Source: Planctomycetota bacterium (GTDB taxonomy: Bacteria; Planctomycetota; B15-G4; SIAN01). From it: DNA of 64,000 bases. Positions 6,388 through 29,122 of this stretch are shown here, piece after piece; within the stretch, counting starts at the first letter, position 1; every line of letters begins with the position of its first letter. A model generated the notes under the pieces. The model made no database searches, was not told the DNA's origin, and saw nothing but the letters and a program-made list of their open reading frames with translations. The position numbers were made by a program, and so were the translations under genes. Where the stretch lies: positions 101,206 to 165,205 of the forward strand of contig JANQQL010000005.1 in NCBI GenBank assembly GCA_028289345.1. Direction: 5' to 3'.

Positions 6388-7506
6388 ATGAACCGGGAAC
6401 AGCAGGTCACACTCTTGCGCGAAGATGTAGACGCCTGGAACTCATGGCGTCAGTCAATCGTCGACCCTCCTCTCGATCTTCGCGGTGCTCAGTTGCGTGG
6501 CACCCGACTGGCGGGGGCGAACCTCTGCCGTACTGTGTTGAGCCGCGCTGATCTCGCTGGCTGCGACCTATCCATGTGCGATCTCCGGAGTGCAACGCTC
6601 GGGTCAGCAGATCTCAGCGAAGCCAACCTGGACCACGCGATTCTCGACGCAGCGGTACTGGACGATGCCGTTGCGCGAGAGACCAACTTCAATCGCTCGA
6701 GTTTGAGAGGATGCAGTCTGGACCGTGCCGATCTGACCAACGCGGTTCTCCAGGGAGCGGACCTGACGGACGCGAGCTTTCGGGATTCGCAGCTGATCGG
6801 GGCGGACTTGGCGGAGACCTTGTTTCGTAGGACGACACTGTCTGGCGCCGACGTGACAAACGCGGCTCTGATGGGGACAGTCTTCGCTTGGACCGACCTG
6901 AGCGAGGTCGTCGGACTGGAAGCTTGTGTTCACATCGGTGCATCGTCAGCGGACCAAAAGTCGCTCGCGTGCCTTGGAGACGAGCATGAGGGCTTTCTGG
7001 CCGGAATGGGAGTTCCATTCGGCAGCCGCGCAGCGGCGACAGCTCCGCCCCTTTCGAGCCCGATGGCTTCGTGCTTCATCAGTCACGCGAGCGAGGACCT
7101 GAGCTTCGCCCGCAAGCTGCGCGACGATCTGCATCGGAACGGACTCCGCGCTTGGCTCGCCGCGGACGAGCTCCAGGTCGGCGATCGCCTGCGCGGGTCG
7201 ATCGAACGCTCGATCTGGCAGCACGACTACGTCTTGCTCGTCGTGTCAGCCAATTCGATCAAGAGCTCGTGGGTGGCCCACGAAGTCGAGATCGTCGTCA
7301 GAAAGGAACGTGAAACGAACATGAGTTCCTTACTTCCCATCCGACTCGACGAGACGTGTGAACTCGATGGATCCCACTGGAAGGACAGCGCCTTGAACGA
7401 CCGCCTAATGTGCGACTTTGTCGGATGGCAAGACGAAAACAAGTATCGCGGAGCGTTGAAGAGGATTCTCGAACGCATGGTCAAGATTCCGCCGTCTGCG
7501 CCGTAG
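6388..7506 (+). CDS. pentapeptide-repeat protein with C-terminal TIR domain
   Basis: aa 30-170 are A(D/N)LxG-type pentapeptide repeats (nt ~6475-6897). aa ~228-355 form a TIR domain (CFISHASEDLSFARKL..., LLVVSANSIKSSWVAHEVE with the catalytic-type Glu at nt 7282-7284). Lies 17 nt downstream of the GTPase gene. Confidence 0.85.
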   Translation: MNREQQVTLLREDVDAWNSWRQSIVDPPLDLRGAQLRGTRLAGANLCRTVLSRADLAGCDLSMCDLRSATLGSADLSEANLDHAILDAAVLDDAVARETNFNRSSLRGCSLDRADLTNAVLQGADLTDASFRDSQLIGADLAETLFRRTTLSGADVTNAALMGTVFAWTDLSEVVGLEACVHIGASSADQKSLACLGDEHEGFLAGMGVPFGSRAAATAPPLSSPMASCFISHASEDLSFARKLRDDLHRNGLRAWLAADELQVGDRLRGSIERSIWQHDYVLLVVSANSIKSSWVAHEVEIVVRKERETNMSSLLPIRLDETCELDGSHWKDSALNDRLMCDFVGWQDENKYRGALKRILERMVKIPPSAP

Positions 7507-7532
7507 GGCCGATCCCACGAGCGTTCCTCCCG

Positions 7533-8411
7533 TCACCTCTTCCGCTTGATCTCGACGAGGCACGCCTGCAGCCGGGGCGCGATGAGTTCGAACGGCGTCG
7601 TGTCGCCGTCGAACTCGCGCATCCTCGGTCCCAGGTCGGCGTGAATCGACTCGAGCGTCTCCATGAAGTCGCGTTGCGTGCTTGAGGGGGGAACCCCATG
7701 GGTATAGGTGACGAGATGCGCCAGAGGACCACTCGCAACGAGCACCGTCATCCCGCCGTAGTCGAAGCGATCCAGCTGGTCGGACTCATCGCGGCCCATC
7801 GTGTCGCGGGCGAACTCTCGAATCACGGTGAGCATCGCCGATACGAGATCCGGATCCTTCGCCGCATCGGAATCGGTGCGTCCTGAATGGGCAAGGAGCA
7901 GTCCGGTTTCCGCGTGGACGAGCATGACCAGGTCGACGCGAAAGACCAACGAGTGCATTCGTGCGACCTCGGCGAACGGCTTGCCCGTCCGCCAAGCCTC
8001 GATCCACCATCGTACTCCTCGGAGCGTCATCGCACCGCGCAGCGCATGAACAAAGCTCTCAGCCGCGGTCTCTAGGGATCGCGAAAACGACTCGCGAATC
8101 GCCGGCCCGAGAACGGGAAACAGATAGCTAGCGACGGCCTTTGGATCGTTTTTGACCGACGTGCCCAGCGCTCTCTCCACGACCGGCGCAAACGCGGATT
8201 CGATGCGAGAATCAGTCTTCGACAGACGGTGGATCAATTCAGGAAGCCGTTGCTCCACGACGGTGAGCACGTGTTGTTCCGCATCCGACTCCGTCTCCTG
8301 CCATCGAGCTTGCGGATTCGCTGAGGCGGCGAGAGCCGCTTGCACGTCGCGAAGAGAATCTTCAAGTGCAGCAATCCTCGTCAAGAGCGCACGCTCACTG
8401 TCACTTTGCAT
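7533..8411 (-). CDS. coiled-coil protein with C-terminal Roadblock/LC7(MglB)-like region (tentative)
   Basis: Start at MQSDSE (ATG 8411, GAGGGGGA 7 nt upstream). The C-terminal LVMLVHAETGLLLAHSG...VSAMLTVIREFARDTM...GGMTVLVASGPLAHLV pattern resembles Roadblock/LC7 folds. Assigned by eye only. Confidence 0.5.
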   Translation of the reverse strand: MQSDSERALLTRIAALEDSLRDVQAALAASANPQARWQETESDAEQHVLTVVEQRLPELIHRLSKTDSRIESAFAPVVERALGTSVKNDPKAVASYLFPVLGPAIRESFSRSLETAAESFVHALRGAMTLRGVRWWIEAWRTGKPFAEVARMHSLVFRVDLVMLVHAETGLLLAHSGRTDSDAAKDPDLVSAMLTVIREFARDTMGRDESDQLDRFDYGGMTVLVASGPLAHLVTYTHGVPPSSTQRDFMETLESIHADLGPRMREFDGDTTPFELIAPRLQACLVEIKRKR

Positions 8412-8839
8412 TCTTATCCCCCTCGAACGGCATCGAGCAAAGCGGGGCGAAGCAGCGTATTGCTCTCTGCCTGTCGTCCGACATTGTAGCTCGTCTGCGG
8501 GGCGAGTCGCCCAGCGGCGATCGCCGAGCCGGGGAGCATCCTCCGACGTGGCGCGCGAGCACGGTGTGTGCGTGTCGCAACCAACCAGTGTCATCTCTCG
8601 CAGGGAGGGCCGTCCAGTTTTCCCAAAGCGCGCCACCGTCCGTGTACAGGGTTACGGCACGGTCGATTGTCTGGACGAGATGCCGTCAGACTCCCCGGAT
8701 TGAGTCCGCCAAACACCCTGCGATGCAGATCTTTTCTGGTTTTCTGCAAACCAATTCGATCGGCGAGTACGCCTGCGGTTGTCGCGACGGCAGTCTCAGC
8801 CCTTCTTAATCCACAGCTACTCATCTTCGGGAGAATAGA

Positions 8840-9196
8840 ATGTTTGTATTCAAGAACCTTCCTCTGTTGGTCTTTGCTGCATTTGCACTGTGTCTCGTCC
8901 CGGTTTCGGACATCGAGGCAGGATCCCCGGCACCGGCTCCGATTTCCGCATCGCCCGCAGGAGGGACGATCGAGCTCGGCCAAACGATTTGTGTCTCGAA
9001 CCATACAGGGACCCCCCTACCGATCACTTTCAAACTCAATGGTGTGCCTGCATCGAGCGGCGTCATCCCGCCCTTTGGAGGGACGGTTTGCGCACCGGTT
9101 CCGATGCTTCCGGGGCTCGTCGGGGCAAAGGTAACGGTATGCGTCGATGGCAAGCAAACCGGCTTCTGCTGGGAGATTGTCAGACCCGCACAGTAA
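8840..9196 (+). CDS. small secreted protein, unknown function
   Basis: 118 aa. N-terminal signal-peptide-like LPLLVFAAFALCLVPVSDIEA; four Cys. Confidence 0.45.
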   Translation: MFVFKNLPLLVFAAFALCLVPVSDIEAGSPAPAPISASPAGGTIELGQTICVSNHTGTPLPITFKLNGVPASSGVIPPFGGTVCAPVPMLPGLVGAKVTVCVDGKQTGFCWEIVRPAQ

Positions 9197-13430: not shown

Positions 13431-14429
13431 CTACAGTGTTTTCAGGGCCTGCCGCGTCATTTCCCGGGTGTAGCGGTGAATCTTCCAGTGGCCGGGGGCC
13501 CAGCCTGCCAGAAAACGGTGGAAGTCGGCCCACGCCGCGGGATAGAGGGCACGCCACTCTCGCTCCACGGCGTCGGCATCCACGGACGGTGCCAGGTGCT
13601 CGCGGAGCAACGTGAAGTATGTGTCGAGATGATCCGCCGCATGCGCCTCGCATTCCGCGTCGCTGAGACAGCTGCTCAGGAAGTAGGCCACGTCCTTGAT
13701 TCCACAGCCGCCGCCCACGTATTGGAAATCCACCGCGGCCACGTCCTGGTCGGCGAAGCAGAAGTTCGCGACCTTGGCGTCCCCGTGGACGAGGGTCTGA
13801 AACCGTGCGCCGCTCAGCGCGGCGTCCAGCGGCAGCGCCGCCTGACGGAGTTCGGGATCGTTCAATGCTTCCAGCTCCTCGGCGCGAGTGGCCAGGTGCC
13901 AGTAGGTCCCGGTTTCCCAGAGCCCGGTAGGGGGTGATCCGAGGAACTGCGCGTGAAACGCGGCCAGCCAACGAAGGCAGCGGCGGATGCGAGGCCCGTC
14001 GAGCCGGGTCCGACGCCCCGAGTAGCCCGCGGCGTCAAGGTCTTCGAGGAGGAAGCGCCAGCCACCGTCGGTCTTCTCGGCCGCGTGACATGTAGCGGTC
14101 CGAAAAGCGTCGCGGGAGTCCGGGCACCAATGCGAATAGAAGTAGCACTCGACGTCGTAGGAGCGAAGCTTGCGCTGGTGCGACGCATCCCCGGACCAGC
14201 CGCGCGGGTGAGTCCGAACTCGCGGGGGCGCGACTTGTTTCACGATCACGCTAGGAACATCCGAACCGTCCAACCTCACGCGCACGATCTCGCCGTAACC
14301 GCTCCACAGCGACTGGATCGGCTCGACCGATGCTGGCCGGCCAGCGACGTGTCGTTGCAGCCATGCGAAGGAGGACGGATCGGACAGCAGGTGGTTCGCA
14401 AACGGGTTCGCTCGTCTTCGATCGCTCAT
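13431..14429 (-). CDS. phosphotransferase-family kinase (APH/choline-kinase/EcKinase-like)
   Basis: 332 aa. [11 protein letters not shown] (HGDxxxxN) and VDFQYVGGG motifs. ATGA overlap with the upstream LytTR ORF. Confidence 0.8.
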
Positions 14430-14956
14430 CGAGGAATCCGGTCGTCCTCGAGCGACTCGCGCAGCTTCTTGAACGGGCGTTCGCTGACGATGATCTCGCT
14501 CCCGGCGCGGTCGGCGGGGAGCAGGACGTCGGTCGCTTTGACGGATGGTTCGATAACGGATGGCCCGATTTCCCGATCCCGGTTCACGATCACGTCACGG
14601 CCAGCGAGGAAGAACGGCGGCTGCGACAGCTGGGGTTGGAACTCGCGGATGGTGGGCTTGACCCGATCGACCTCGTCGGTGGTGTGCAGTCGCACCTGAC
14701 CGTGCTCGATGTCGAAGAACACGACCTCGGTGAGCGAGACGAGCTCGAACCTCTTCTCGGTGTGCACCACGATTCTCTCCGGTCGTGCCGGGCTTCGATC
14801 GAGAAGCCGCCGAGATCTGGCCCCGCTCTTCCACGATCTCGCGGACGGCAAGTTTTGGCAGCGACCGATGGCGCGGGCCAGCGAATCCTGACCGATCGGC
14901 TTCAACGGGTAGGCAACGGCATCGGCTTCGAAGGCGGCCAGCGCGGTGATCTTCAT
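14426..14956 (-). CDS. LytTR DNA-binding domain protein; receiver domain largely missing
   Basis: LytTR region is [33 protein letters not shown]...[16 protein letters not shown]. Only the last receiver element ([18 protein letters not shown]) is in frame. Confidence 0.65.
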
Positions 14957-17508: not shown

Positions 17509-18915
17509 CTACAAGAATATTCCGCGACGCAGACAGCTCTCGAGACAGAAAGCCAGGACGTTGGTCAAGGGTTCTCCGGAATCCAAGAGTGAACGGATCG
17601 CCTTAGCGGTCGCCGGAATCGCTTTGAGATCACCGTGCTCCAGCAGCGTGTCCGAAGCTTGACGCGCCTTCTTCAGGACAACATTCGCGTCGAGCCGGGT
17701 GTACGCGACACCGAAGATCGCCGGCTCGAAGTTCCGTTCCTCCACGAAAGGTTCGAATAGCTCGACTCGAGCGATATCGGCTCGTTCGAGCCCGAGCTCT
17801 TCAAAGAAGCCCCGGTAAGTAGTTGCGGAAGCATCAAACTCCTGGTCGTAACGATCGCTCAAGCTGAGCCCCTCGTTCATCGCAACATGCCAATGACCTT
17901 GAGTTTCATCCGAGTTCGCAATATTGGCTGAGCGCTGACTCAAGATCAGATGCGGCTCTCCGCCACGTGGTGCAAGCAACAACAGATCGAAACCGAAAGA
18001 CCTCAGAAGGCCCGCGTACTCGGTAAGGCTCCGAGAATAGTCAGGTTCTATGGCCCCTCGAGCGCGCAGCCGTCGATAGAGGCGCTTTGCAAACTGTGAG
18101 GTGAAATAGTCCGTGAGGTAGACGACCACGTTGAGCAGGTGCTCTTCCGATTCTTCAGTTCGTGATCGACGGAACGCCGACACGCCAAACTTCTTTCCGT
18201 TGAACACTTGCCACCCAGAGCTTCGTTTTCGATCAACCAGTTCGCGGACCTCGGCCTTCGCCGCGAAGACGTCCTCTTTCGTCACGCCAAGCTTGGGCCC
18301 ATTGCTTCCGAGCCGCACGTATTCCTCCAAATCATCGAACTCCAGGGCGTCCAGGCTCGTATCGACGATCTGCTCTTCGCCTGCGTGGGTAAAGGTAACC
18401 TGATCAAGTCGATAGCTGTGATCGGAGTGATCCAACACGGCGATGTCAGAAACCGGCATCGCTTCGCTGCCGCTACTGGGTCGCCCCCTAGTCATCTCAG
18501 CGAAACGGGTCTTTTTCTCGAAGCGGTCCTCCAACGCCGCGGAGATTTGACCCGCGACACCGTTCGCGCCGGAGACCCGAAGATCCGCATAGCCCAGATC
18601 CGCGACTTCGGGTGGGAGCGAGGCGTCGTCGACCTTCACCACGATCATCCGGTTCTCGTCGCGGCTAGTCGCGTATCGGAACTCTCGCATGGTCCATTCC
18701 TTCTCGAGATATGATTTCGAGATCAAGGCCACGACAACGATTCCCTCGGCGCCATAGATCTCAGCTAGTTTCGGCGGTAGCGGCAAGCCAAGGAGCTTGT
18801 GCATTCGATTGGGGCCGTAGAAGCAACTGAAACCATCGCGTCTCAACCTCGTAGCAATTGCATCAGCGATCGAGACGTCTTCCGAGGCGTACGAGATCGC
18901 GACATCGTAATCCAT
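17509..18915 (-). CDS. TIR domain protein with C-terminal Nudix-like module
   Basis: aa 1-135 are TIR (YDVAISYASEDVSIADAI..., ALISKSYLEKEWTMREF). aa ~305-445 (nt 17581-18003): LILSQRSANIANSDETQGHWHVAMNEGL...YRGFFEELGL, a degenerate Nudix-box pattern. Confidence 0.85.
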   Translation of the reverse strand: MDYDVAISYASEDVSIADAIATRLRRDGFSCFYGPNRMHKLLGLPLPPKLAEIYGAEGIVVVALISKSYLEKEWTMREFRYATSRDENRMIVVKVDDASLPPEVADLGYADLRVSGANGVAGQISAALEDRFEKKTRFAEMTRGRPSSGSEAMPVSDIAVLDHSDHSYRLDQVTFTHAGEEQIVDTSLDALEFDDLEEYVRLGSNGPKLGVTKEDVFAAKAEVRELVDRKRSSGWQVFNGKKFGVSAFRRSRTEESEEHLLNVVVYLTDYFTSQFAKRLYRRLRARGAIEPDYSRSLTEYAGLLRSFGFDLLLLAPRGGEPHLILSQRSANIANSDETQGHWHVAMNEGLSLSDRYDQEFDASATTYRGFFEELGLERADIARVELFEPFVEERNFEPAIFGVAYTRLDANVVLKKARQASDTLLEHGDLKAIPATAKAIRSLLDSGEPLTNVLAFCLESCLRRGIFL

Positions 18916-19062
18916 GAACAGTCACTCAAGCGTTGTGGTTCGCGAGACCTGCAAATGGGATATGCTCAAGGCCTATCAACAGGGCGCGCTCACCGGTTGT
19001 CAGAGATGTCAGCCGAAGGTACTCGTCCAGCAAGGGGCTGCTCGCGGCTTCCATTCTAGCCT

Positions 19063-20979
19063 ATGCCGCACGAGGGACGGGACTACGAGGAAGAACATGA
19101 CCACGTTCGCGAATCGGCCAAGGCCTTCGGTGAACTGATGCGCTGCGTCGAACGCTTCGTGGCGAGTAAGACCGGGAATGAGGAAACGTGCGAGGATGCG
19201 GCGGGAGTTCTCAGCCACTTCGCATTCGTGGTCGACGGTGGTAGCAGCCCCCATCGCGCTGATGACCCGCGCTCCGGCCGGATCGCAGCCGTCGCGATCG
19301 CTAACGCGCTCCAGCAGACTTCTCCTCGGTGCACGGCACATGAGGCAGCCGAGTTTCTGACCCGCGCCCTAGCCGAGCAGCTCCGATCCCTAGGACTAGA
19401 ACCGGATCACGATGGTGACAGACCTTGTGCTTCGCTGGCCTGCTTCAGTCTCAATCGCCGGGAAGTCTGGCTGATCGGAGGCTGTCAAGCCCTACTAATC
19501 ACCGGCGGAGAGCCGGGTGATCGCCTGACCGGCGAGGCTTCGATCGACATCGCCCTGGCGTCGACACGAGCCCTCGTTTTGGCGACGGAACTAAGCCGGG
19601 GACGAAGCGTGCATGAGCTTCGCGCCCAGGATCCAGGGCGTGCTTTCATCGAGCCTCTACTTCGTCAAGCTTACCTCTTTCGCAATCGGCCAACGACCGA
19701 GAGATTCTCGTTCTCGGCTCTCGACGGAGTCCGAGTGCCGGACGTGCGAGTGTTCCCTGTCGCGTCAGCTGTCGAGGAGGTGGTGCTGGCGACGGACGGC
19801 TATCCCATGCTCGAATCGACGTTGGCCGCTAGCGAAGCACAGCTGGCCGGTCTGCTGGCGGACGATCCATTGCTGATTGATCGAGTGATCTCAACGAAGG
19901 GTCTCGCACCGCACCTGCTCTCCTTTGACGACCGCGCCTACGTCCGCCTCAGGCTGGAAGTGCCTCCTGGTGCGATCGCCACCGAAGATCGGATCCCGGA
20001 CCTTGGCGGAATGCAACTTGCATTCGGTGCACGCTGGGTTGAATACGCTCCGTTTCACCCAGCCGGACTCTCAGTCGAAGCATCTTATGGTCCTGGTGCG
20101 CCGCATCGCCCGCCCTCGTTGGACCAAGCGACGCACGAAATCGCCGAAGCGATTGAGGCTGGAATGATTTCCAACACTTTTGATGCGCCGCGATACGCCT
20201 TGGTGGGCACGCAGACTCGCTCGCCAGATGCCAACACCGAGCGCCCACGGTTGGTCCTTCACTTCCGCGATTCGAGTTACTCGACGTTCCTCGCATCGAA
20301 CGGTTGGAACCGGAAGAAACTATCCTCAATCGAAGCGGATACGGTGCAGGTAGACCCGCGACCGGAAATGCGCGTACTGCCGTGGCGCGAGATGCTCGCC
20401 GGCGGTTTTGCAAACTGCCTCGGGGCCTGCTGGATTGTGGTACTCGAGAACGGCGGTTCGCCGCTGACTTACCTAACGCGACGCTATGGCGGCATCCTCG
20501 ACGGTTACTGGGATGGCGCTGTCGACGAAGGACTTCGCCGCGGCTCCGCCTCGCGACGCTTCGATCAGAGATCGGAACAGGATCTGACACCAGACCTCGA
20601 GTCCTTCATTCTACGTGCAATTGCAGAAGAGGCCGGCCTGCAGGTTGGGGCCAACTGTTGCACGCTCTTCACGGCCGGCCACGACACTTTCAGTCTTCAA
20701 CCCGCACTAGTTGGCTGCGTCGAGGTAGACTTGACCCGCGAAGAACTTCTAGATCATCTCCGCATCGCGATAGGCCGCGAAGAGTCTGACCGCATCCGCT
20801 GGCTCTCACTGGAGCCAGAGGTGGTCGTGCAGACGGTCGAGAGATTGAAACGCGAACAGCGCCTTCTGCCATGGGTCGAGATCGGACTCTTCGGAACGCT
20901 TGTCGTGCGCGCCGCTCGAACGGGATCTCTCGGAAGCCTCTTGCGCAGGCTCCGGCTTGCGCGTAGCTCGAATCTTTGA
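19063..20979 (+). CDS. PP2C-like (tentative) N-terminal domain plus C-terminal Nudix-like module
   Basis: 638 aa. FAFVVDGGSS ... VVLATDGYPML ... DPLLIDRV..FDDRAYV resembles PP2C_2-type phosphatase folds. aa ~360-615: LTYLTRRYGGILDGYWDGAVDEGL...ILRAIAEEAGL parallels the C-terminus of 17509-18915. Confidence 0.7.
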   Translation: MPHEGRDYEEEHDHVRESAKAFGELMRCVERFVASKTGNEETCEDAAGVLSHFAFVVDGGSSPHRADDPRSGRIAAVAIANALQQTSPRCTAHEAAEFLTRALAEQLRSLGLEPDHDGDRPCASLACFSLNRREVWLIGGCQALLITGGEPGDRLTGEASIDIALASTRALVLATELSRGRSVHELRAQDPGRAFIEPLLRQAYLFRNRPTTERFSFSALDGVRVPDVRVFPVASAVEEVVLATDGYPMLESTLAASEAQLAGLLADDPLLIDRVISTKGLAPHLLSFDDRAYVRLRLEVPPGAIATEDRIPDLGGMQLAFGARWVEYAPFHPAGLSVEASYGPGAPHRPPSLDQATHEIAEAIEAGMISNTFDAPRYALVGTQTRSPDANTERPRLVLHFRDSSYSTFLASNGWNRKKLSSIEADTVQVDPRPEMRVLPWREMLAGGFANCLGACWIVVLENGGSPLTYLTRRYGGILDGYWDGAVDEGLRRGSASRRFDQRSEQDLTPDLESFILRAIAEEAGLQVGANCCTLFTAGHDTFSLQPALVGCVEVDLTREELLDHLRIAIGREESDRIRWLSLEPEVVVQTVERLKREQRLLPWVEIGLFGTLVVRAARTGSLGSLLRRLRLARSSNL

Positions 20980-21188: not shown

Positions 21189-21614
21189 TCATGAATCTTC
21201 CCTCTTGCTCGATGTCAATGGAGGGGCTTGAGGCGTCCCCCACGGGAATCCACCACGATCCCGCTTTGGCATCAAACTCAGCCATCCCGCTTGAACGCCC
21301 AGGTCGGTAGTACATGAGTACTGAATCGAGGATTTGTCGGAGTTCTCGAAACCTGTGCCCCGCACCCATCCGCCTGGAACAAGCTCATCGAGCCCGCTCC
21401 ACGAGGACGCAGTAAGATCTATCGTTTCTGTCCATTGTCGGTACCCCCGCGCGGAGACCCGACACCAGTACTTGTCCACGGGAAGCGACTCAAACCCGAC
21501 CCGCCCCTGAGCATCTGACCCTCGGGACGACATTTTCGGGATGCACAGGTAGTGTCGGTGGGTCGGATTTGGCCAATCAGCTTGGTAGCTCTGTGATCCT
21601 CCGTGGACCAGCAC
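21189..21614 (-). CDS. ORF with carboxypeptidase-regulatory-like motif; overlaps the TM-TIR ORF in another frame
   Basis: SDAQGRVGFESLPVDKYWCRVSARGYRQWTETIDL. 196-nt overlap with 21419-22576 suggests a frameshifted continuation or a separate small gene. Confidence 0.3.
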   Translation of the reverse strand: MLVHGGSQSYQADWPNPTHRHYLCIPKMSSRGSDAQGRVGFESLPVDKYWCRVSARGYRQWTETIDLTASSWSGLDELVPGGWVRGTGFENSDKSSIQYSCTTDLGVQAGWLSLMPKRDRGGFPWGTPQAPPLTSSKREDS

Positions 21615-22576
21615 ACGCCACGAAAGTCCGGAATGAAGAGCTTTCCCACCAGGTTAGTCAGACCGCCCCTCGGCCCGTAGTTGCTCCGCCACTCCTGGAT
21701 CACTTCCATATCCACGAGTCGAATCGGTAGCAGGACGTCAGGATCGGTGATCACGCAGCGTGCCTCGAGTCGCACCCAGCGGCTCCTCAAACTTGCCTGC
21801 GACATCACTAAAACGACCCTGCGACTCGAAGCAATGGCCTTGATCAGCTGCTCGGTGACCCCCTTGCCGTACTTTAGATCCTTCGCATCCCACCACACTC
21901 GCAGGCCGACACCATCCAAGAATCTGCAAAGGGACATCGCGAACGGAAAGTCGGCACTCGAATAGGAAATAAAGCAATCGTATCGATCAGATGGAGCAAG
22001 GAGTCTCCAGGGACTTGCTACGACCACGTATCCGATCAAGTAGACTGCCAGGGCACCGACGAAAGCCCACCACGTCACGTGGGAGAGCGGATCTGCAATG
22101 CCAGAGTAGACCGCGCAAAGGAAACCGAGAACGACAGCTGTACAGACTGCGAGAAGTCGGGTGTAGCACTTGGCGGTAGCGTTCGGTCGCAGGATGTGCC
22201 ATGCGACAGCGATCCGCTGTAGCAAATCGGGGGCAAGCTTGGGCATCACAGCCCAGTACGTTCCGCACAGAATCAAGTACATCGCACAGAACCACAGCAC
22301 AACTGTGAGGTCTCTGCCACTGTAAGCCGCGATCGTGGACGCGCCCACTGCCCCACTTCCGCTGAGCACGGCCAGCACGTCAACGGCATCAACCAAACGA
22401 GAACCGGATCCCCAGGGGAGATCTTTCTGGCGCCATGCCCAAACATCGAATAGGCAGATGAGGGAGAGCAAGAGCGATACCAGAGAACGAAACAATGCTA
22501 GGTCGAATACGGCGCCGACTGCGGCAACGAGTCCAAGGACTCCGGTCGCGAGATAGAACCACCAGTGGACATTCAT
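21419..22576 (-). CDS. polytopic membrane protein with C-terminal TIR domain
   Basis: About 6 hydrophobic helices in aa 1-190. TIR at aa ~199-300 (nt ~21677-21982): YDCFISYSSADFPFAMSL..., VLVMSQASLRSRWVRLEA. Confidence 0.8.
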   Translation of the reverse strand: MNVHWWFYLATGVLGLVAAVGAVFDLALFRSLVSLLLSLICLFDVWAWRQKDLPWGSGSRLVDAVDVLAVLSGSGAVGASTIAAYSGRDLTVVLWFCAMYLILCGTYWAVMPKLAPDLLQRIAVAWHILRPNATAKCYTRLLAVCTAVVLGFLCAVYSGIADPLSHVTWWAFVGALAVYLIGYVVVASPWRLLAPSDRYDCFISYSSADFPFAMSLCRFLDGVGLRVWWDAKDLKYGKGVTEQLIKAIASSRRVVLVMSQASLRSRWVRLEARCVITDPDVLLPIRLVDMEVIQEWRSNYGPRGGLTNLVGKLFIPDFRGVCWSTEDHRATKLIGQIRPTDTTCASRKCRPEGQMLRGGSGLSRFPWTSTGVGSPRGGTDNGQKR

Positions 22577-23292
22577 GGCAACGGTCTCCGCTTTCGGAAT
22601 GGACGATTCGGGCTCTCACCCGACGCAACGCGGCTGATCAAGCAAGTCGATTGAAATAGCTCTGGCATGGCGTCAACCTCCTTGCCCTCTCCAACCGGAT
22701 TGGGACCCGTTCGCGACAGAAAATCATGCGGAATCGCTCGAATGGCATGGTTCCGCCCCATCGACGAATGAGCCAGAAGTCACGACCGACAGGAAAGCCC
22801 AGAGATGTCCGCTCGGATCTCCGCGTCCAGGCTGCGGCGCCTGAACGACCGGCACGAATGGGCGACGTGATTCCGTACCGTTGCAGCCGAGCCAACGGGC
22901 ATCTGCGGCCTTGAAGCTCAGAGTTCCGATGCCGAGCTACGCAAGAGTGACGAAGCGGCAGATGTGTTTTCGCCATGGCCATCTCGAGGGTGGCCACAAT
23001 CCGCAGCGACCGTAGAGCTTCATCCCTCACCCATGAGCCCTTGGGACCTTCGAGGCGAAAGTCGGGGGGCCGTTTCCATGGCGGTCAGGAGTAGGAAACG
23101 CCCAGTATCAGTGTGGAATGCGAGCATCAGTAACCACTCAGCCCGGAGACGGGAATTCGAGATTTCTCCCGTCTCATTCTTCGGGACGCTCAGTTCAAGA
23201 GAGTGTCAGGGCGCAGCGCGGGCCCGGCGGTGCTTTTCTCAGCCTCCGAATCGGGGGCTCTCTCCCTATCGCCAGGAAGGAAGAACAGGACC

Positions 23293-25569
23293 ATGCTCCT
23301 TCTCCGGATCTCCATTTTCACCAGTGCTTTGCTGTTCGGCTCACCCTCACACCTTGTGAAGCACCTTGGGAACCCGAAGGGCGTCCGCAAATCGCCGGAA
23401 GAGGTCGTCGAGCTCCTGCGGTCGGTCGATCGCTCAACCCGCGATGTCCAATCAGTCACCTACCAGGCCTCCTGGAAGCCGGAGGGAATTGGCGTGGGCC
23501 CCCGATTCGAGGGACGAGTCAGCCTCGCACTGGACACAGCTGCAGAGAATCAGGCTTGGTACCTGCTCGTTGATGGCGAATTCTCCGAGTCGGGCGAACC
23601 TCCTCGGAAAATCTGGGCGTCCAAGAACAGCGAAGGTTGCTTCCTCATCGATGACTCGAGGAAGTTCTACTGCGCCGAGCCGAGCGACGCCTCCGGGGCC
23701 GCCGCTTCGTTGCTGGCCCGGCTCAAGGGAGCCTGGCTCCCTGAGTTCCTCACCGACACACCGTTCGTCGACGAAATGGAGGCACATCTCTCGCGTCACG
23801 AGGGAAGCAAGTCCGTCGCGGGTGTTCCGTGTGAGGTCGTGTTCGTGGAGTACTCGGCAAACCTGGACTCCTCTCCGACTCGGTGGTACTTCGGGGCAAT
23901 CGATCATCTCCCACGGCGGGTTGAACGATTGAGTCGGAAAAACCAAGCCGATGGGCACCAAACTTTGACGATCTCAAACCTCCAGACTGGAGGAGGCGTC
24001 GACAACGGTGCCTACACGCTCGAGAGGCCCGACGGTTACACGGACGCTCGAGACATCCTGCGCGAAGTCGACCAGGCCGTCCGCGACGTGACCAACGTCT
24101 CATACCATGCATCCTGGAGCCCGGAGGGAGCAGGCTTCGACGACCTTCTCCAATTCGAAGGGAGGGTTCACCTGGCCACCAAGGGCCCGTCGGAGTCCGC
24201 CATATGGAAGATCCGTTTGGACGGCGAGCTCTCCGACTCAAGGGTGACCTCAAAGAAGATTTCTATAGCGAGCGATGGTCAGAACATATCCGCGATTGAC
24301 CACAGCAATGAGCTCTTTCGTGAAGGGCACATGGGGTCTGCCGGCGTTGCGCAAATCGAACGCCTCTCTGGAGCATGGCTTCGAGAGTTCCTGGTGGACA
24401 CTCCCTTTGATCACGAGATCGACGCTCCGATCGTCCTCTATGAGGGTCAGCAGAGCGTGAAGGACGTTCTCTGCGACGTGTTGTTCGTCGAGTACACAGA
24501 TGCGCCCGATTCATCGAGGACACGCTGGTACCTCGGCGTGGACGACAAACTACCCCGTCGAGTTGAACGCTTGACACGGAAGGGACAGGAAAACGGCGCC
24601 ATGGTCCTCGTCATCTCCTCCCTCAACACGGACACAGCGCTCCCAGACACCACCTTCCAACTGCGACGACCCGAGGACTACGAGTCCGAGGAGTTCCCTC
24701 CATACTGCGTCGACATTTTGGAGGGCCAAGAGCGCGTTGAGATCATCCGCACGCCCTATTCTTCATCGTCCGGTAAGTCCGCATCCTTCGCTGCTTCGCG
24801 GAGGATCCCGGATTCCCCTGATTCCCTCTCATCGAGGATTCGCAACACGCTGACGATCCCCTGGTTCGGTGACTTCCTGCTCGACCTCTCTCGTGCAGAT
24901 GCGAACGAACGTGGTGACCTGTGGCGCGACCTGGAGAAGCAGACCCCGAACATCTACTCCTCGCTCAAGCCTCTGCTTGACCAGTTGTTAGACGACGGGA
25001 GCTTCGGTACCACAGAATACGGTAAGGTCGACCGCTCGGATGATGGGTTCTACTGCGAGATCAATGGCACTCGCGCCGAAGTCGCGTCTCTGCTGTTCTT
25101 CGAGCCGCATCGCAAAACTCTCTGCGACGTCTCGGATTCCAAGAGCGCCATCGCCAGGGTGAAGAGAGCCGAGAGACGGCTGACGAGCTATCCCGACTGG
25201 CCGTTTCTCGAGAGACCCTATGCAGATGTGACTCTCCTCGGCGACTCTCGCAGCTCGACGACCCCGAGGCCCAGCTCCACGGCCCGGATCGCGTACACCG
25301 TATCCGTCAACTGGTGGCCTGACTTCACGTCAGATCTCACAGTGCAAGATCGGTTTGACTACGACGGAGTCCCGATCTGCCTGTACTACTCCCTGACGGA
25401 TCGCTGGAAGTACTTCCACGGCGTTGACTATTACTTTGGGATCCAAACTCAAGATGGGACTTTTGTCGCGCTTTTGATGGTGACCGAGTTTCGGTGTTCC
25501 AAGGACAATCCTCTTCAAATCGTCCGGGAGAACCAAGGTTCGCTCAAGTATCATGCCGAGAACCGATGA
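23293..25569 (+). CDS. secreted protein with two tandem LolA-like/lipoprotein-sorting-like repeats and an unknown C-terminal domain
   Basis: Start at MLLLRISIF (ATG 23293, AGGAAGGAAG upstream). Two ~230-aa repeats (VQSVTYQASWKPEG...RWYFGAIDHLPRRVERLSRK / VTNVSYHASWSPEG...RWYLGVDDKLPRRVERLTRK). Confidence 0.7.
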   Translation: MLLLRISIFTSALLFGSPSHLVKHLGNPKGVRKSPEEVVELLRSVDRSTRDVQSVTYQASWKPEGIGVGPRFEGRVSLALDTAAENQAWYLLVDGEFSESGEPPRKIWASKNSEGCFLIDDSRKFYCAEPSDASGAAASLLARLKGAWLPEFLTDTPFVDEMEAHLSRHEGSKSVAGVPCEVVFVEYSANLDSSPTRWYFGAIDHLPRRVERLSRKNQADGHQTLTISNLQTGGGVDNGAYTLERPDGYTDARDILREVDQAVRDVTNVSYHASWSPEGAGFDDLLQFEGRVHLATKGPSESAIWKIRLDGELSDSRVTSKKISIASDGQNISAIDHSNELFREGHMGSAGVAQIERLSGAWLREFLVDTPFDHEIDAPIVLYEGQQSVKDVLCDVLFVEYTDAPDSSRTRWYLGVDDKLPRRVERLTRKGQENGAMVLVISSLNTDTALPDTTFQLRRPEDYESEEFPPYCVDILEGQERVEIIRTPYSSSSGKSASFAASRRIPDSPDSLSSRIRNTLTIPWFGDFLLDLSRADANERGDLWRDLEKQTPNIYSSLKPLLDQLLDDGSFGTTEYGKVDRSDDGFYCEINGTRAEVASLLFFEPHRKTLCDVSDSKSAIARVKRAERRLTSYPDWPFLERPYADVTLLGDSRSSTTPRPSSTARIAYTVSVNWWPDFTSDLTVQDRFDYDGVPICLYYSLTDRWKYFHGVDYYFGIQTQDGTFVALLMVTEFRCSKDNPLQIVRENQGSLKYHAENR

Positions 25570-26224: not shown

Positions 26225-27178
26225 ATGAGATCCGCCAACCGCCAGTGGCAAGAGCTGGTCCGCCAGCACCCCCAGCTCACTGACCCGAATCTGTGGCCGC
26301 CACTCCCGGACGCGGTGACCGATCGGATTGGTGAGCACATTGTCCGATTGGCGGCAATTCCGTTCCACCGAACGAGCGCCTGGACAGTTCGCCTGCTCCA
26401 ACGGACCCGCTCAGCCAGTGCGGCCCTCGTCGTTCTCCCAACATTCCTCATTCCGTTCGACTGGCCGGGAAAACACCTCACTCTCTATGCGATCGCAACT
26501 GTCTGCATCTTCATTCTCACGGCAGTGTTCATCCGAGATCGAGCCTGGGCACCCGCCTTCGCCGCTGGCGGCCTCGGTATCCTGGCCTTCGTCGACTGCG
26601 TTGCGTGGCTCCGCATTTTTGACGAGGTCAAGGATTCGGGATTTCCGCGAGTCCTTGCGTACATTGACGTGATCGCCTACGGATCCATAGTCGGTGCGGC
26701 GATGAGCTTGTTCGGGTCAGTCCGAAAGACCTCAGGAGCTCATCCCTCGAGATGGCTCTACATCCTCTTTACATCCTATTGCGCAGCGGCATGCTACTTC
26801 TGGTACTTGCTTGCCGGCCCCTTGAGCGACTCACGTCTGGCAAGCAAACTCCGAGATGTATGGGACCTCGATGGGTATGCGTCGTCTGCAGATGCCTTCC
26901 TGCAATCGCTCGGAACCACTGTACTTCAGGACGTCGAAGGACTTCGTTTCATGGCGTGGCTCGTCTGGGCCTTGTACGGGATTTCCGGGACGGTGTCATT
27001 GGCTTTGCTGTTCTGCCGAGTCTCGCTTCGTGCGACGGTTCGATGGATTCTGATTCCCGCCGCCCTGTATGCCGTCGCCGGCCCCTGGACCAATGAGTCG
27101 TGGGAGTGGTTCCGGTATCTGTTCTTGTTGCTTCCGCTCGCTGGTGCAATCGACTGGGCGACGACTAGAAGCAAGTAG
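26225..27178 (+). CDS. polytopic membrane protein (possible anti-sigma partner)
   Basis: 317 aa with about 7 hydrophobic segments. Follows the sigma-like gene by 19 nt. Confidence 0.55.
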   Translation: MRSANRQWQELVRQHPQLTDPNLWPPLPDAVTDRIGEHIVRLAAIPFHRTSAWTVRLLQRTRSASAALVVLPTFLIPFDWPGKHLTLYAIATVCIFILTAVFIRDRAWAPAFAAGGLGILAFVDCVAWLRIFDEVKDSGFPRVLAYIDVIAYGSIVGAAMSLFGSVRKTSGAHPSRWLYILFTSYCAAACYFWYLLAGPLSDSRLASKLRDVWDLDGYASSADAFLQSLGTTVLQDVEGLRFMAWLVWALYGISGTVSLALLFCRVSLRATVRWILIPAALYAVAGPWTNESWEWFRYLFLLLPLAGAIDWATTRSK

Positions 27179-27733: not shown

Positions 27734-29122
27734 ATGAAGGTCGACGTGTTCCTGAGCTACGCGAGAGAAGACAGGACGAAAGCCGAGAGACTCGTGCACC
27801 GCCTGGAGTCCCGAGAACTCTCCGTCTGGTGGGACCCAGATGTTGCACCCGGTAAAGACTGGCCTGAATCGATTGAACAGGCGTTGAACTCCGCGACCTG
27901 CGTGGTCGTGCTTTGGTCGCAGATCTCCGTGAAAGCTCGCTTCGTCAGGGAGGAAGCGGAAAGTGCGAAGAATCGAGGTGTCCTCCTCCCGGTGTTGATC
28001 GACACCGTCGAAATCGAGAACTTGCCACTGGGCTACAGGACCATCGAGTCGGCGGACCTCAGTCGCTGGCGTGGCGATCCGTACGATCACGAGTATTCGC
28101 TTCTATGTGATCGAATCTCGTCCATCCTCAGCGGGGAGGAAGTCAGCTCCGCGAGGGACGAAGCGAGAAGGGCCCGCCGGCGACGACAATCCGTTCGAAG
28201 CCTCGCGGCGCTACTACTGATTGTTGCGGTCGGTGTCCTCCTGTACACCGAGCCCTGGGTTTCCAGTGCTCCACCCACGATCTCAGATTTCGCCGTGGAG
28301 TCGACTTCGATCCCCTGGAACAGCTCGACTGCGCTGGTCTGGAAGTCCGACGACGCGGATCGCGTCGAGCTCACCGCAAATGGCTCGGTGGTCGGAGAAC
28401 TGGATCCGGAGGGACGTCATCCCGTAAGTCCAGGAGAGACAACAACGTATCGGATTCGCGCCATGCGGGGCAACGTCCGGGGAACCGACGTGAGCGAACT
28501 CATCGTCCGGGTTGGCTCTCCGGATCTGTCCGGGACCTGGAAGAGCTCTGAAGGCGGGTACTACGTGGTCACCTCAACACGGAGTGGATACAGGTGGGAG
28601 GCGTACACAATTGAGAACGGGAAGGCGATGTTCCACAACTACGGGGCGTACGCCACGGCGACGGTCGAGTACATGTCTTCTGCCGTCCCAAGCGTTGAGT
28701 CGAGGGCGACCTTCGCAGCGATTCCCCCGAAAATGCTGCACCCTCCCACCATCTCCTGGTCTCATGGGGAGAAGTTCACGAAGGTTCAGGAGGGAGTCGC
28801 CTACATTGCTCATTCGCCATTGACGGTGTACGGAAAGTGGGTGAATGAGCAAGGACGCCAGTTCTCCATCGACCAAGTGCCCGAGGGGTTCTCTTGGTCC
28901 GTGCCGGTTCACTTCGAATCGGGAGATGTGACCGCGGATGGCGGCCGGCTGTCTGTCCAGACAACACCCGCCAGCGAGTTCGGCTCGTGGATTTCTGCCG
29001 GCACTTTGACCGGAACAACGATCGGGGACTCCGGGTCGGTTCAGCCCACTCAGATCGCCTGGAACAACGGCGTGACGTTTCAGGCGGTCGATTCGATCCC
29101 GTTTCAGCTGCATGGCAACTGA
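27734..29122 (+). CDS. N-terminal TIR domain, single TM, large extracytoplasmic C-terminal region
   Basis: KVDVFLSYAREDRTKAERL..., VVVLWSQISVKARFVREEAESA. TM SLAALLLIVAVGVLLYT. About 290 aa of beta-rich C-terminal sequence. Confidence 0.85.
   Translation: MKVDVFLSYAREDRTKAERLVHRLESRELSVWWDPDVAPGKDWPESIEQALNSATCVVVLWSQISVKARFVREEAESAKNRGVLLPVLIDTVEIENLPLGYRTIESADLSRWRGDPYDHEYSLLCDRISSILSGEEVSSARDEARRARRRRQSVRSLAALLLIVAVGVLLYTEPWVSSAPPTISDFAVESTSIPWNSSTALVWKSDDADRVELTANGSVVGELDPEGRHPVSPGETTTYRIRAMRGNVRGTDVSELIVRVGSPDLSGTWKSSEGGYYVVTSTRSGYRWEAYTIENGKAMFHNYGAYATATVEYMSSAVPSVESRATFAAIPPKMLHPPTISWSHGEKFTKVQEGVAYIAHSPLTVYGKWVNEQGRQFSIDQVPEGFSWSVPVHFESGDVTADGGRLSVQTTPASEFGSWISAGTLTGTTIGDSGSVQPTQIAWNNGVTFQAVDSIPFQLHGN

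Follow-up and report, generated by a model that had tools for sequence, protein, structure and literature searches.

Two neighbouring genes, here named A and B, are located in a stretch of 64,000 nucleotides from a Planctomycetota bacterium (contig JANQQL010000005.1, positions 101,206 to 165,205 of the forward strand; the whole stretch is referred to as the window). Protein A carries an N-terminal TIR domain followed by a core whose predicted structure resembles the human Nudix protein NUDT22, and protein B carries a divergent PP2C domain followed by a diverged version of the same module, which spans about 240-310 residues. The core is very rare and it has been joined to TIR domains, to transmembrane (TM) helices and to PP2C-like domains. 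The association of the two genes is real but clade-specific and facultative, and A looks like an autonomous unit to which B is an accessory. Judged from sequences and structural models, what would be new here is an unannotated and very rare sensor-effector TIR architecture in which the sensor has a new fold and a phosphatase is the accessory, and of which few independent occurrences are at hand.

Domain composition of proteins A and B

Outside its TIR domain, protein A matches nothing in Pfam, NCBIfam, PADLOC or the sequences of the PDB. A structural model was generated with AlphaFold2 from an alignment of seven homologues (predicted local distance difference test, pLDDT, 81; predicted template modelling score 0.69); its homologues P0007-P0012 and P0015 share 47-60% identity with A. 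When the PDB was searched with this model using Foldseek, the top matches were six human NUDT22 chains (5lou/5lor/5lf9/5r50; E 8e-12 to 5e-11), to which about 320 columns were aligned with a target-normalised TM-score of 0.65-0.71. The alignment covers both domains, that is, the N-terminal beta-rich subdomain of the core (aa ~157-300, with the FNGKKFG and TDYFT motifs) and the Nudix-fold subdomain (aa ~301-468). The NUDT22 chains are followed by dozens of other Nudix structures (3dup, 3i9x, NUDT16, NUDT7, NrtR, TIRR) and then by TIR structures, and the matches of the A model in the viral structure library BFVD are Nudix proteins only. Thus, the structure matches and the box sequences described below agree with the preliminary description of this DNA, which had been made from the sequence and had suggested a Nudix-type fold with an altered Nudix box in which the RE pair is replaced by RG or RA and the EE pair is kept.

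The canonical box GX5EX7REUXEEXGU is present neither in A nor in B, and both proteins lack a match to Pfam NUDIX (PF00293) at E<=1; the UXEEXGU part is retained in both. In A, the spacing between the glycine and the arginine is 19 instead of the canonical 14 residues, RG stands in place of RE and the EE pair is kept (FFEELGL). Altogether, 29 residues are invariant across the TIR-type and TM-type cores. The invariant residues of the core include N239, K242, R252, E257, D269, Y270, R328, W342, H343 and N347. R368, G369, E372, E373 and L374 of the box are invariant in 11-12 diverse core sequences. The core sequences also share, without exception, the acidic residues E397, D422 and E426 further downstream. 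The only relative with a Pfam NUDIX signal is P0022, and this signal is below threshold (E 0.035, 14.5 bits vs 21.1). Sequence homology between the core of A and NUDT22 could not be detected: the structurally aligned residues are 12-14% identical, sequence and profile searches of the PDB did not retrieve NUDT22 even with a limit of E<=10, and the profile of the core family retrieved TIR chains only. Because the core fails the Nudix-box and Pfam NUDIX tests and has no detectable sequence homology to NUDT22, we file it, on the evidence of the model, as NUDT22-like by fold and not as a member of the NUDT22 family.

The TIR domain of A is an ordinary member of the TIR_2 family, as had been recognised from the sequence. 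The Pfam profile matches A5-113 with an E-value of 1.6e-15 and 58.1 bits, which is above the curated cutoff of 28. In TIR domains, the glutamate at the W-x3-E position is the catalytic residue. The glutamate E78 of A, which the preliminary description had called catalytic-type with good reason, is invariant among the family members (n=7) and is profile-aligned with the W-x3-E glutamate of the AbTir/BtpA-type TIR chains 4lzp, 7uxr and 7uwg. The Foldseek matches for this domain include AbTir 7uxu and the TIR domain of MyD88.

Searches of Pfam, NCBIfam, PADLOC and the PDB sequences yielded no match for protein B, whose full-length homologues P0002, P0003 and P0004 are 43-48% identical to it, and a fold search was needed because the sequence libraries returned nothing. 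The model of B is poor overall (pLDDT 47), with pLDDT values of 60-88 over aa 45-250. Nevertheless, the top 50 Foldseek matches of the N-terminal domain in the PDB are all PPM/PP2C/SpoIIE phosphatases (E 1.2e-6 to 4e-4), with target-normalised TM-scores of up to 0.53 for a domain in which the pLDDT reaches only 60-88. An alignment of 40 PP2C-like members revealed that D58, G59, D245, G246, D289 and D290 are invariant and that the residues E44 and D45 occur in at least 90% of the sequences. By inspection, we take the ED, DG, DG and DD pairs of B to be the four acidic metal-binding motifs of PP2C (M1/M2). In PP2C enzymes such as tPphA, the aspartate of the GD motif binds a third metal. The aspartate of the GD(S/C) motif is present in at least 90% of the family, but it is replaced by Gly140 in B of the window and by alanine in P0003. 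Among the standalone relatives of the domain, L023 scores 24.3 bits with Pfam PP2C_2 against a cutoff of 24 (E 2.6e-5) and L027 scores 22.5 bits, whereas B itself has no match. Taken together, the fold matches, the relatives at Pfam PP2C_2 and the conserved acidic motifs bear out the PP2C-like N-terminus that had been proposed for B, and the domain is a divergent PP2C.

The module shared by A and B, which had been noticed by eye, is also borne out by sequence comparison. BLASTP aligned A301-420 with B447-569 (E 2e-5), and hhalign aligned the core profile (12 sequences) with the profile of the B C-terminus (4 sequences) over 219 columns, relating A215-444 to B352-592 with a probability of 95.9% and an E-value of 5.5e-9. 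With close A homologues alone the hhalign match was weak (probability 32%, E 5e-4), and it reached E 5.5e-9 when the TM-type cores were added. Moreover, the hidden Markov models (HMMs) of the core and of the B module match each other, weakly, in both directions. The hhalign alignment also covers the similar segment that had been pointed out in front of the Nudix-type part (FNGKKFGV in A and FDAPRYAL in B). At the level of sequence profiles, the modules of A and B are truly homologous. In the box of B, the spacing between glycine and arginine is 28 vs 14 residues and RA replaces RE; the EE pair is kept (IAEEAGL), and this is the case in all four full-length B homologues. B has a glutamine (SLQP) where the core family has the invariant glutamate of NFE397. 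The C-terminal part of B presumably adopts a Nudix fold as well, given its homology to A.

Distribution of the core and its partners

The proteins were surveyed in a base of 5.8 billion clustered proteins. The core profile detected only 17 clusters in this base, and four relatives of B were found; all members of the core and B families that have a source name are called hypothetical. The distribution of the core is patchy and comprises Planctomycete-like contigs, Alphaproteobacteria, Firmicutes and Acidobacteria. The TIR-core architecture occurs in the clade of A, in a full-length homologue from Salinarimonas chemoclinalis and in a second clade that is represented by P0018. Cores that are preceded by one or two TM helices are encoded by Planococcus maitriensis, by metagenome-assembled genomes (MAGs) of Clostridiales and by an Acidobacteriaceae MAG, and P0021 consists of the core only. 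The core of the TIR protein P0018 shares 41% identity with that of the TM protein P0013 (E 7e-79) vs 26% with that of A. Since the core of P0018 is closer to a TM-type core than to A, TIR domain and TM helix must have been exchanged on one core lineage.

The core is also linked to PP2C domains in four ways. In addition to the fusion in B, P0022 (L097:979-2850, 623 aa) has an N-terminal NUDT22-like core and a C-terminal PP2C-like domain, which is the reverse of the order in B. (The gene upstream of that for P0022 encodes a 307-aa protein that seems, judged by eye, to contain TM segments.) When the B family was used for an exhaustive HMMER search, the C-terminal B-type module was found only in B proteins and in P0023. 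In the latter case (L098:1-879 and 876-1889), the B gene is split into one open reading frame (ORF) for the PP2C-like domain and another one for the C-terminal module, which overlap at ATGA; thus, the two halves of B can be separate polypeptides. Finally, in locus L015 of the Acidobacteriaceae MAG, the gene for a TM-core protein (6875-8176) is followed 20 bp later by a PP2C_2 gene (8196-9068; Pfam E 4.3e-8), whose product is unrelated to the PP2C-like domain of B at the BLAST level. The core-PP2C link therefore recurs as the B fusion, the reversed fusion, the split gene and the independent neighbour.

As the preliminary description had required, homologues of both genes are adjacent in other genomes, namely on the metagenome contigs L001 and L004. 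There, A and B are convergent and 43-50 bp apart, whereas they are divergent in the window, and the flanks are unrelated. L001 and L004 are 78% (A) and 72% (B) identical to each other, and the pair of the window is 59% (A) and 47% (B) identical to them. Overall, B adjoins three of nine A-type loci, and A adjoins three of the four B-type loci that could be assessed. The three paired A proteins and P0008 form one clade. The remaining six A-type loci have no B (L005, L006/7, L008/9, L100, L010 and L099), which is difficult to reconcile with a signal that must pass between two proteins. Cryptic relatives of B were sought among the proteins encoded beside B-less A genes (732 aa in L008; 392 aa and 378 aa in L006) and in L002 (357 aa), and none of them is related to B. 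A search around all A, B and core loci found no third conserved gene, the other clusters being antisense shadow ORFs, and no messenger synthase (CD-NTase, Cas10) is linked to these loci. In L002, the B homologue is followed, with a 4-bp overlap, by the gene for a 357-aa protein (L002:11899-12972, also L003:1964-3037) that has a weak DUF6395 match (E 0.003) and is possibly an alternative partner of B.

The PP2C-like domain of B belongs to an unnamed and large family. According to HMMER, it comprises 1,740 representative clusters, mostly stand-alone proteins of about 275 aa. Among the surveyed PP2C-like loci (L016-L095), 59 had enough upstream sequence, and in 17 of these the gene directly upstream encodes a protein of about 260 aa, here called X2 (for instance, L027:316-1149 with 1160-1993 and L023:328-1110 with 1110-1937). 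X2 has an N-terminal TM helix and conserved TGxYxRxxTGxGQ, GGPKNN and GxHTxGTxAAAxYF motifs, and it had no match in Pfam, PADLOC or PDB-sequence searches. X2 and the PP2C-like protein look like an uncharacterised two-gene module. Moreover, a TIR-X2 protein of 469 aa is encoded upstream of the PP2C-like gene in L029 (51-1457) and L030 (6652-8058), and X2 is fused to the PP2C-like domain in the TM-X2-PP2C-like protein P0005 and in the TIR-X2-PP2C-like protein P0041 (698 aa), with which P0029 is grouped. Thus, TIR and PP2C-like domains are linked via a second, unrelated middle module. In gut metagenomes, the PP2C-like domain forms the C-terminus of proteins with SASA (sialate O-acetylesterase-type), GDPD and DUF4996 domains (L077/L083/L085, 829 aa; P0142, 599 aa).

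The locus in the window and its surroundings

The coordinates, strands and 147-bp spacing of the two ORFs that had been given for the window all match the ORF list, and the arrangement is head-to-head (Table 1). All peptide strings that had been quoted were located in the translations: KEWTMREF at A72-79, FNGKKFGV... at A238-272, LILSQ...NEGL at A323-350 and YRGFFEELGL at A367-376; FVVDGGSS at B55-62, VLATDGYP at B241-248, FDAPRYAL... at B373-410, LTYLT...DEGL at B468-491 and ILRAIAEEAGL at B516-526. Two details of the preliminary description had to be corrected. The spacers that run from (N/D)EGL to the R(G/A)..EE.GL helix, for which lengths of 18 and 27 had been given, comprise 16 residues in A and 24 in B. 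Furthermore, the pair is not richer in AT than its flanks, as its GC content is 0.593 vs a mean of 0.594 in the window. Only A (0.567; B 0.613) lies below the 5 kb upstream (0.633; 5 kb downstream, 0.582), and the pair is not distinct in the GC profile of the window.

Table 1 Features of the A/B locus and of other genes in the window
Feature	Position	Strand	Description	Basis
Gene A	17509..18915	-	468 aa; TIR domain and NUDT22-like core	ORF list
TIR domain of A, aa 1-130	18526..18915	-	Catalytic-type Glu E78 in KEWTMREF	Pfam TIR_2
Core of A, aa ~157-468	17512..18447	-	Predicted NUDT22-like fold	Foldseek match to whole-chain human NUDT22
Modified Nudix box of A	17788..17871	-	G349...R368-G-F-F-E372-E373-L-G-L376	Sequence, spacing
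Spacer between A and B	18916..19062	.	147 bp, intergenic, divergent
Gene B	19063..20979	+	638 aa; PP2C-like domain and diverged NUDT22-like module	ORF list
PP2C-fold domain of B, aa 26-298	19138..19956	+	Motifs CED43-45, VDG57-59, ATDGYP243-248, SFDDR287-291	Motifs, Foldseek
NUDT22-like module of B, aa 352-592	20116..20838	+	Paralogous to A215-444; contains the FDAPRYAL segment and the altered Nudix box	hhalign, BLASTP
Modified Nudix box of B	20530..20640	+	G490...R518-A-I-A-E-E-A-G-L526	Sequence, spacing
Pentapeptide-repeat and TIR protein	6388-7506	+	372 aa
Multi-TM and TIR protein	21419-22576	-	385 aa
TIR protein with ~340 aa of no recognised family	27734-29122	+	462 aa
EcKL/APH-type small-molecule kinase	13431-14429	-	332 aa
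LytTR DNA-binding protein	14426-14956	-
DUF2092 (LolA-like) protein	23203-25569	+	788 aa; one match, aa 349-492

A search of the 147-bp spacer for a sigma-70-like site found none, and the organism may use other promoter types; a promoter and terminator scan of the window gave no informative matches. The window contains no tRNA genes, and no island boundary could be drawn. It encodes four TIR_2 proteins within 23 kb, including A. The protein encoded at 27734-29122 was considered as a further carrier of the core and was rejected, as it aligns with A in the TIR region only. Similarity between the multi-TM and TIR protein and the TM protein encoded at 26225-27178 was looked for and not found. The window also encodes a TPR Ser/Thr kinase, extracytoplasmic-function (ECF) sigma factors and sulfatases. 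The kinase and LytTR genes that lie 3-4 kb upstream of A (Table 1) are not conserved near A/B homologues elsewhere. Between the TIR genes, the DUF2092 protein has an earlier segment that, on visual inspection, resembles a duplicate within the protein (VRDVQSVTYQASWKPEGIG and VRDVTNVSYHASWSPEGAG).

The surroundings of the homologues are diverse. In L006, the A homologue adjoins a gene for a TIR-WD40 protein. In L005 (8711-17000), the gene for the A homologue P0011 has a phage-integrase fragment on one side and four transposase genes on the other (DUF772, HTH_Tnp_1/rve and two DDE_Tnp_1), with a RelA_SpoT gene beyond, which suggests that the region is mobile or rearranged. The TM-core gene of Planococcus (L011) adjoins an ORF that we read by eye as a candidate IS200-like transposase. 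In L001, L004, L013 and L010, the flanks consist of housekeeping genes. The genomic context as a whole is no more than suggestive of a role in a conflict system.

Possible function and relation to known systems

The model that we tentatively prefer, to which we give somewhat less than an even chance, regards the core as a sensor or hydrolase of a nucleotide-diphosphate-X compound, the TIR domain or TM helix as a swappable toxic output and B as an accessory regulator. The core would bind a nucleotide-diphosphate-X ligand, such as a nucleotide-diphosphate sugar (NDP-sugar) or an ADP-ribose-like compound, and it would probably still hydrolyse this ligand slowly, because the metal-binding EE pair as well as R368, E397, D422 and E426 are invariant. 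Occupancy of the core would turn on the N-terminal output, with oligomerisation, known from other TIR effectors, as the most likely means, and the interchangeable TIR and TM outputs would cause destruction of nicotinamide adenine dinucleotide (NAD+) or membrane damage. Protein A would thus act as a self-contained sensor-effector of the abortive-infection type. In one sub-clade, B may serve as an accessory regulator whose paralogous core reads the same ligand or pairs with the core of A, and whose PP2C domain holds the system back or returns it to its resting state by removing phosphate from A, from another protein or from a phosphorylated version of the ligand. A wider version of this model, which appears unlikely to us, would make the core a new class of prokaryotic immune nucleotide-signal receptors, that is, a Nudix counterpart of SLOG, Macro, SAVED and CARF. 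Such a receptor would bind and self-limitingly hydrolyse a messenger derived from ADP-ribose or an NDP-sugar, or an intermediate of NAD+ reconstitution by phages, and it would gate TIR or membrane effectors; the PP2C domain would be the regulatory arm and A/B a new Thoeris-like type.

Several observations weigh against the tentative model. A function in defence is argued from domain logic only, and the invariance of the EE pair and of other acidic residues would be expected of an enzyme no less than of a sensor. In A, the sole PADLOC-DB v2 match is the generic PDC-S66, which covers the TIR region (E 1.8e-6), and B, P0022, P0013 and P0005 have none. No locus was shown to lie inside a recognised defence island, and relatives of the core did not turn up when viral contigs were scanned. 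Where there is just one TM helix at the N-terminus, it may do no more than anchor the protein in the membrane. With regard to B, the C-terminal fold lacks independent support from the model, in which the pLDDT is below 50, and the protein may be a weak phosphatase because the sequence lacks the third-metal aspartate at Gly140. The SASA, GDPD and DUF4996 fusions place the PP2C-like family in a carbohydrate or phosphodiester context and argue against an exclusively immune role of this family. The case for cooperation is also limited by numbers: the three paired loci belong to one A clade, so the adjacency amounts to about two independent observations; the 2.6-kb contig L099 with the P0008 gene contains no B, and the B homologue of L002 has no A within 10 kb.

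The preliminary description had proposed that the TIR domain generates a signal for a second protein. In such a Thoeris-like scheme, the TIR domain of A would make an ADP-ribose-derived messenger from NAD+ upon infection, the module of B would be the receptor in place of the SLOG/Macro part of ThsA, the PP2C domain would be an effector acting on host or phage proteins, and the core of A would bind or degrade the messenger for feedback. The catalytic-type glutamate of A, the combination of a nucleotide-binding-type fold with an enzymatic domain in B, the adjacency of A and B in three contigs and the additional TIR-PP2C-like link via X2 (L029/L030, P0041) speak for it, as does the fact that Thoeris effectors differ by type (bioRxiv 10.64898/2026.01.22.701046). 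However, the scheme fits poorly with the comparative data, since B is missing in six of nine A-type loci, L002 has B without A, and in the sister clade a TM helix replaces the TIR domain on the same core, which is expected of an output domain and not of a signal synthase. The loci without B and the replacement of TIR by TM suggest instead that the TIR domain is the output of a self-contained protein. Furthermore, the fold nearest to the core is NUDT22, a UDP-glucose/galactose hydrolase, and not an ADP-ribose-specific Nudix protein such as NUDT9, and no described Thoeris type has a PP2C effector or a Nudix receptor. We therefore consider the Thoeris-like scheme improbable; signalling by ADP-ribose as such is possible, but it is not the interpretation best supported by the comparison. 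Even less probable is a sequential destruction of NAD+ without any signalling. Here, the TIR domain would cleave NAD+ to ADP-ribose and nicotinamide, and the Nudix core would convert ADP-ribose (or NAD+/NADH) to AMP and a phosphosugar, which would render the depletion irreversible and block the reconstitution of NAD+ from ADP-ribose by phages; the PP2C-core protein would dephosphorylate the products or phosphorylated ADP-ribose intermediates. The invariance of R368, E372, E373, E397, D422 and E426 is in line with this idea. Moreover, NUDT22 is active although it has no conventional box (PMC5688067; PMC10101856), phages do rebuild NAD+ from ADP-ribose (bioRxiv 10.1101/2024.02.11.579819; PMC13464706) and Nudix enzymes cleave ADP-ribose and NAD+ (PMC9503650). 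However, the TM-core and core-only proteins have no TIR domain to supply the substrate, no member has the glutamate of the RE pair, B has a glutamine at the position of the invariant NFE glutamate, PP2C enzymes are as a rule protein phosphatases, and an ungated, constitutive combination of TIR and Nudix activities would be toxic.

A function outside immunity also seems rather doubtful to us. The core would then be a sensor or enzyme for nucleotide sugars in metabolism or envelope stress, the PP2C domain would belong to ordinary Ser/Thr phospho-signalling in a genome rich in kinases and TIR proteins, and the TIR domain would be an interaction domain or a regulatory NADase in cell physiology. 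The analogy to NUDT22, the size of the PP2C-like family with its fusions to carbohydrate-related domains, the window's kinase, sigma factors and sulfatases together with its several TIR proteins of differing architecture, and the housekeeping flanks of four loci agree with this view. On the other hand, the extreme rarity of the family and its patchy occurrence across phyla (17 clusters in 5.8 billion) are typical of accessory or conflict genes, and the swap of TIR and TM on one core as well as the association of some loci with insertion sequences (IS) point in the same direction. Finally, the adjacency of A and B might be an accident of one lineage, for instance if the core had been duplicated locally and each copy had then undergone its own fusion, and the two proteins would not cooperate. 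The paired loci do fall into one A clade and both genes occur alone elsewhere, but the adjacency has outlasted a divergence to 59%/47% identity, a change between convergent and divergent orientation and a complete turnover of the flanks, and core and PP2C have been linked independently by two fusions with the domains in opposite orders and by a neighbouring PP2C gene that is unrelated. Hence, a mere accident is very improbable.

If the core is indeed a ligand-gated switch, as the tentative sensor-effector model has it, a new sensor fold, the NUDT22-type Nudix, would join the few nucleotide receptors that control TIR or membrane effectors, and the otherwise isolated fold of human NUDT22 would obtain its first prokaryotic structural relatives. 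Moreover, the repeated and independent coupling of nucleotide-module and TIR proteins to PP2C, via the core and separately via X2, points to a regulatory layer of phosphatases that is missing from the catalogues of defence systems. If the module turns out to be a metabolic enzyme, annotation would improve modestly, for about 20 rare clusters of proteins and for the large PP2C-like family that has no name. As small, soluble proteins, A and B offer clear candidates for catalytic residues: E78 for the TIR domain, E372/E373 for the Nudix box and D58/D245/D289 for the PP2C domain.

The preliminary description had stated that the pairing is not known as a defence system, and this agrees with our searches: PADLOC returned only the generic TIR match, and a full-text literature search found no description of a TIR-Nudix or PP2C-Nudix system. 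Like the sensor-TIR effectors TIR-SAVED, TIR-STING and the CARF-TIR protein Cat1, A joins a TIR domain with a catalytic glutamate to a nucleotide-binding-type domain, and like the effectors based on SAVED, CARF or SLOG/Macro, one sensor-like domain is combined with TIR or TM outputs. The layout as a gene pair containing a TIR domain is reminiscent of ThsA/ThsB in Thoeris (bioRxiv 10.64898/2026.01.22.701046; PMC12162218). However, A and B show no ThsA-type matches in PADLOC and NCBIfam, B has a Nudix-type module and a PP2C domain where Thoeris has a SLOG, Macro or other described ThsA sensor, and the two genes do not co-occur consistently. In contrast to all of these systems, the sensor-like domain of A is a NUDT22-type Nudix, and the partner carries a PP2C domain and is facultative (three of nine loci). 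Protein B shares the fold and the ED, DG, DG and DD motifs with the PPM/PP2C phosphatases (PP2C_2, SpoIIE; PstP, tPphA, Stp1), from which it differs by being below Pfam and NCBIfam detection, by the missing third-metal aspartate and by belonging to a separate unnamed family that is often paired or fused with X2 and TIR.

In NUDT22, the N-terminal beta-rich domain serves for UDP binding and nucleotide recognition. The core of A has the same composition of a beta-rich N-terminal domain and a Nudix fold, matches the whole chain of NUDT22 and likewise lacks a conventional box. NUDT22 is the outlier among the human Nudix proteins (PMC5688067) and a stand-alone metabolic enzyme that hydrolyses UDP-glucose to UMP and glucose-1-phosphate (PMC10101856), whereas the core in bacteria is joined to TIR, TM or PP2C domains and has no detectable sequence similarity to its eukaryotic counterpart. 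A precedent for a Nudix domain as a ligand sensor is NrtR, whose Nudix domain senses ADP-ribose (PMC9503650). Like the regulatory Nudix sensors NrtR, TRPM2 NUDT9-H and TIRR/NUDT16L1, the core would be a Nudix fold with a degenerate box that acts as a binding module on an output domain. However, these sensors lack the N-terminal subdomain of the NUDT22 type and have a DNA-binding domain or an ion channel as output, whereas the core is connected to TIR, TM or PP2C and has an invariant EE pair and an invariant arginine in the box helix, so that catalysis may be retained.

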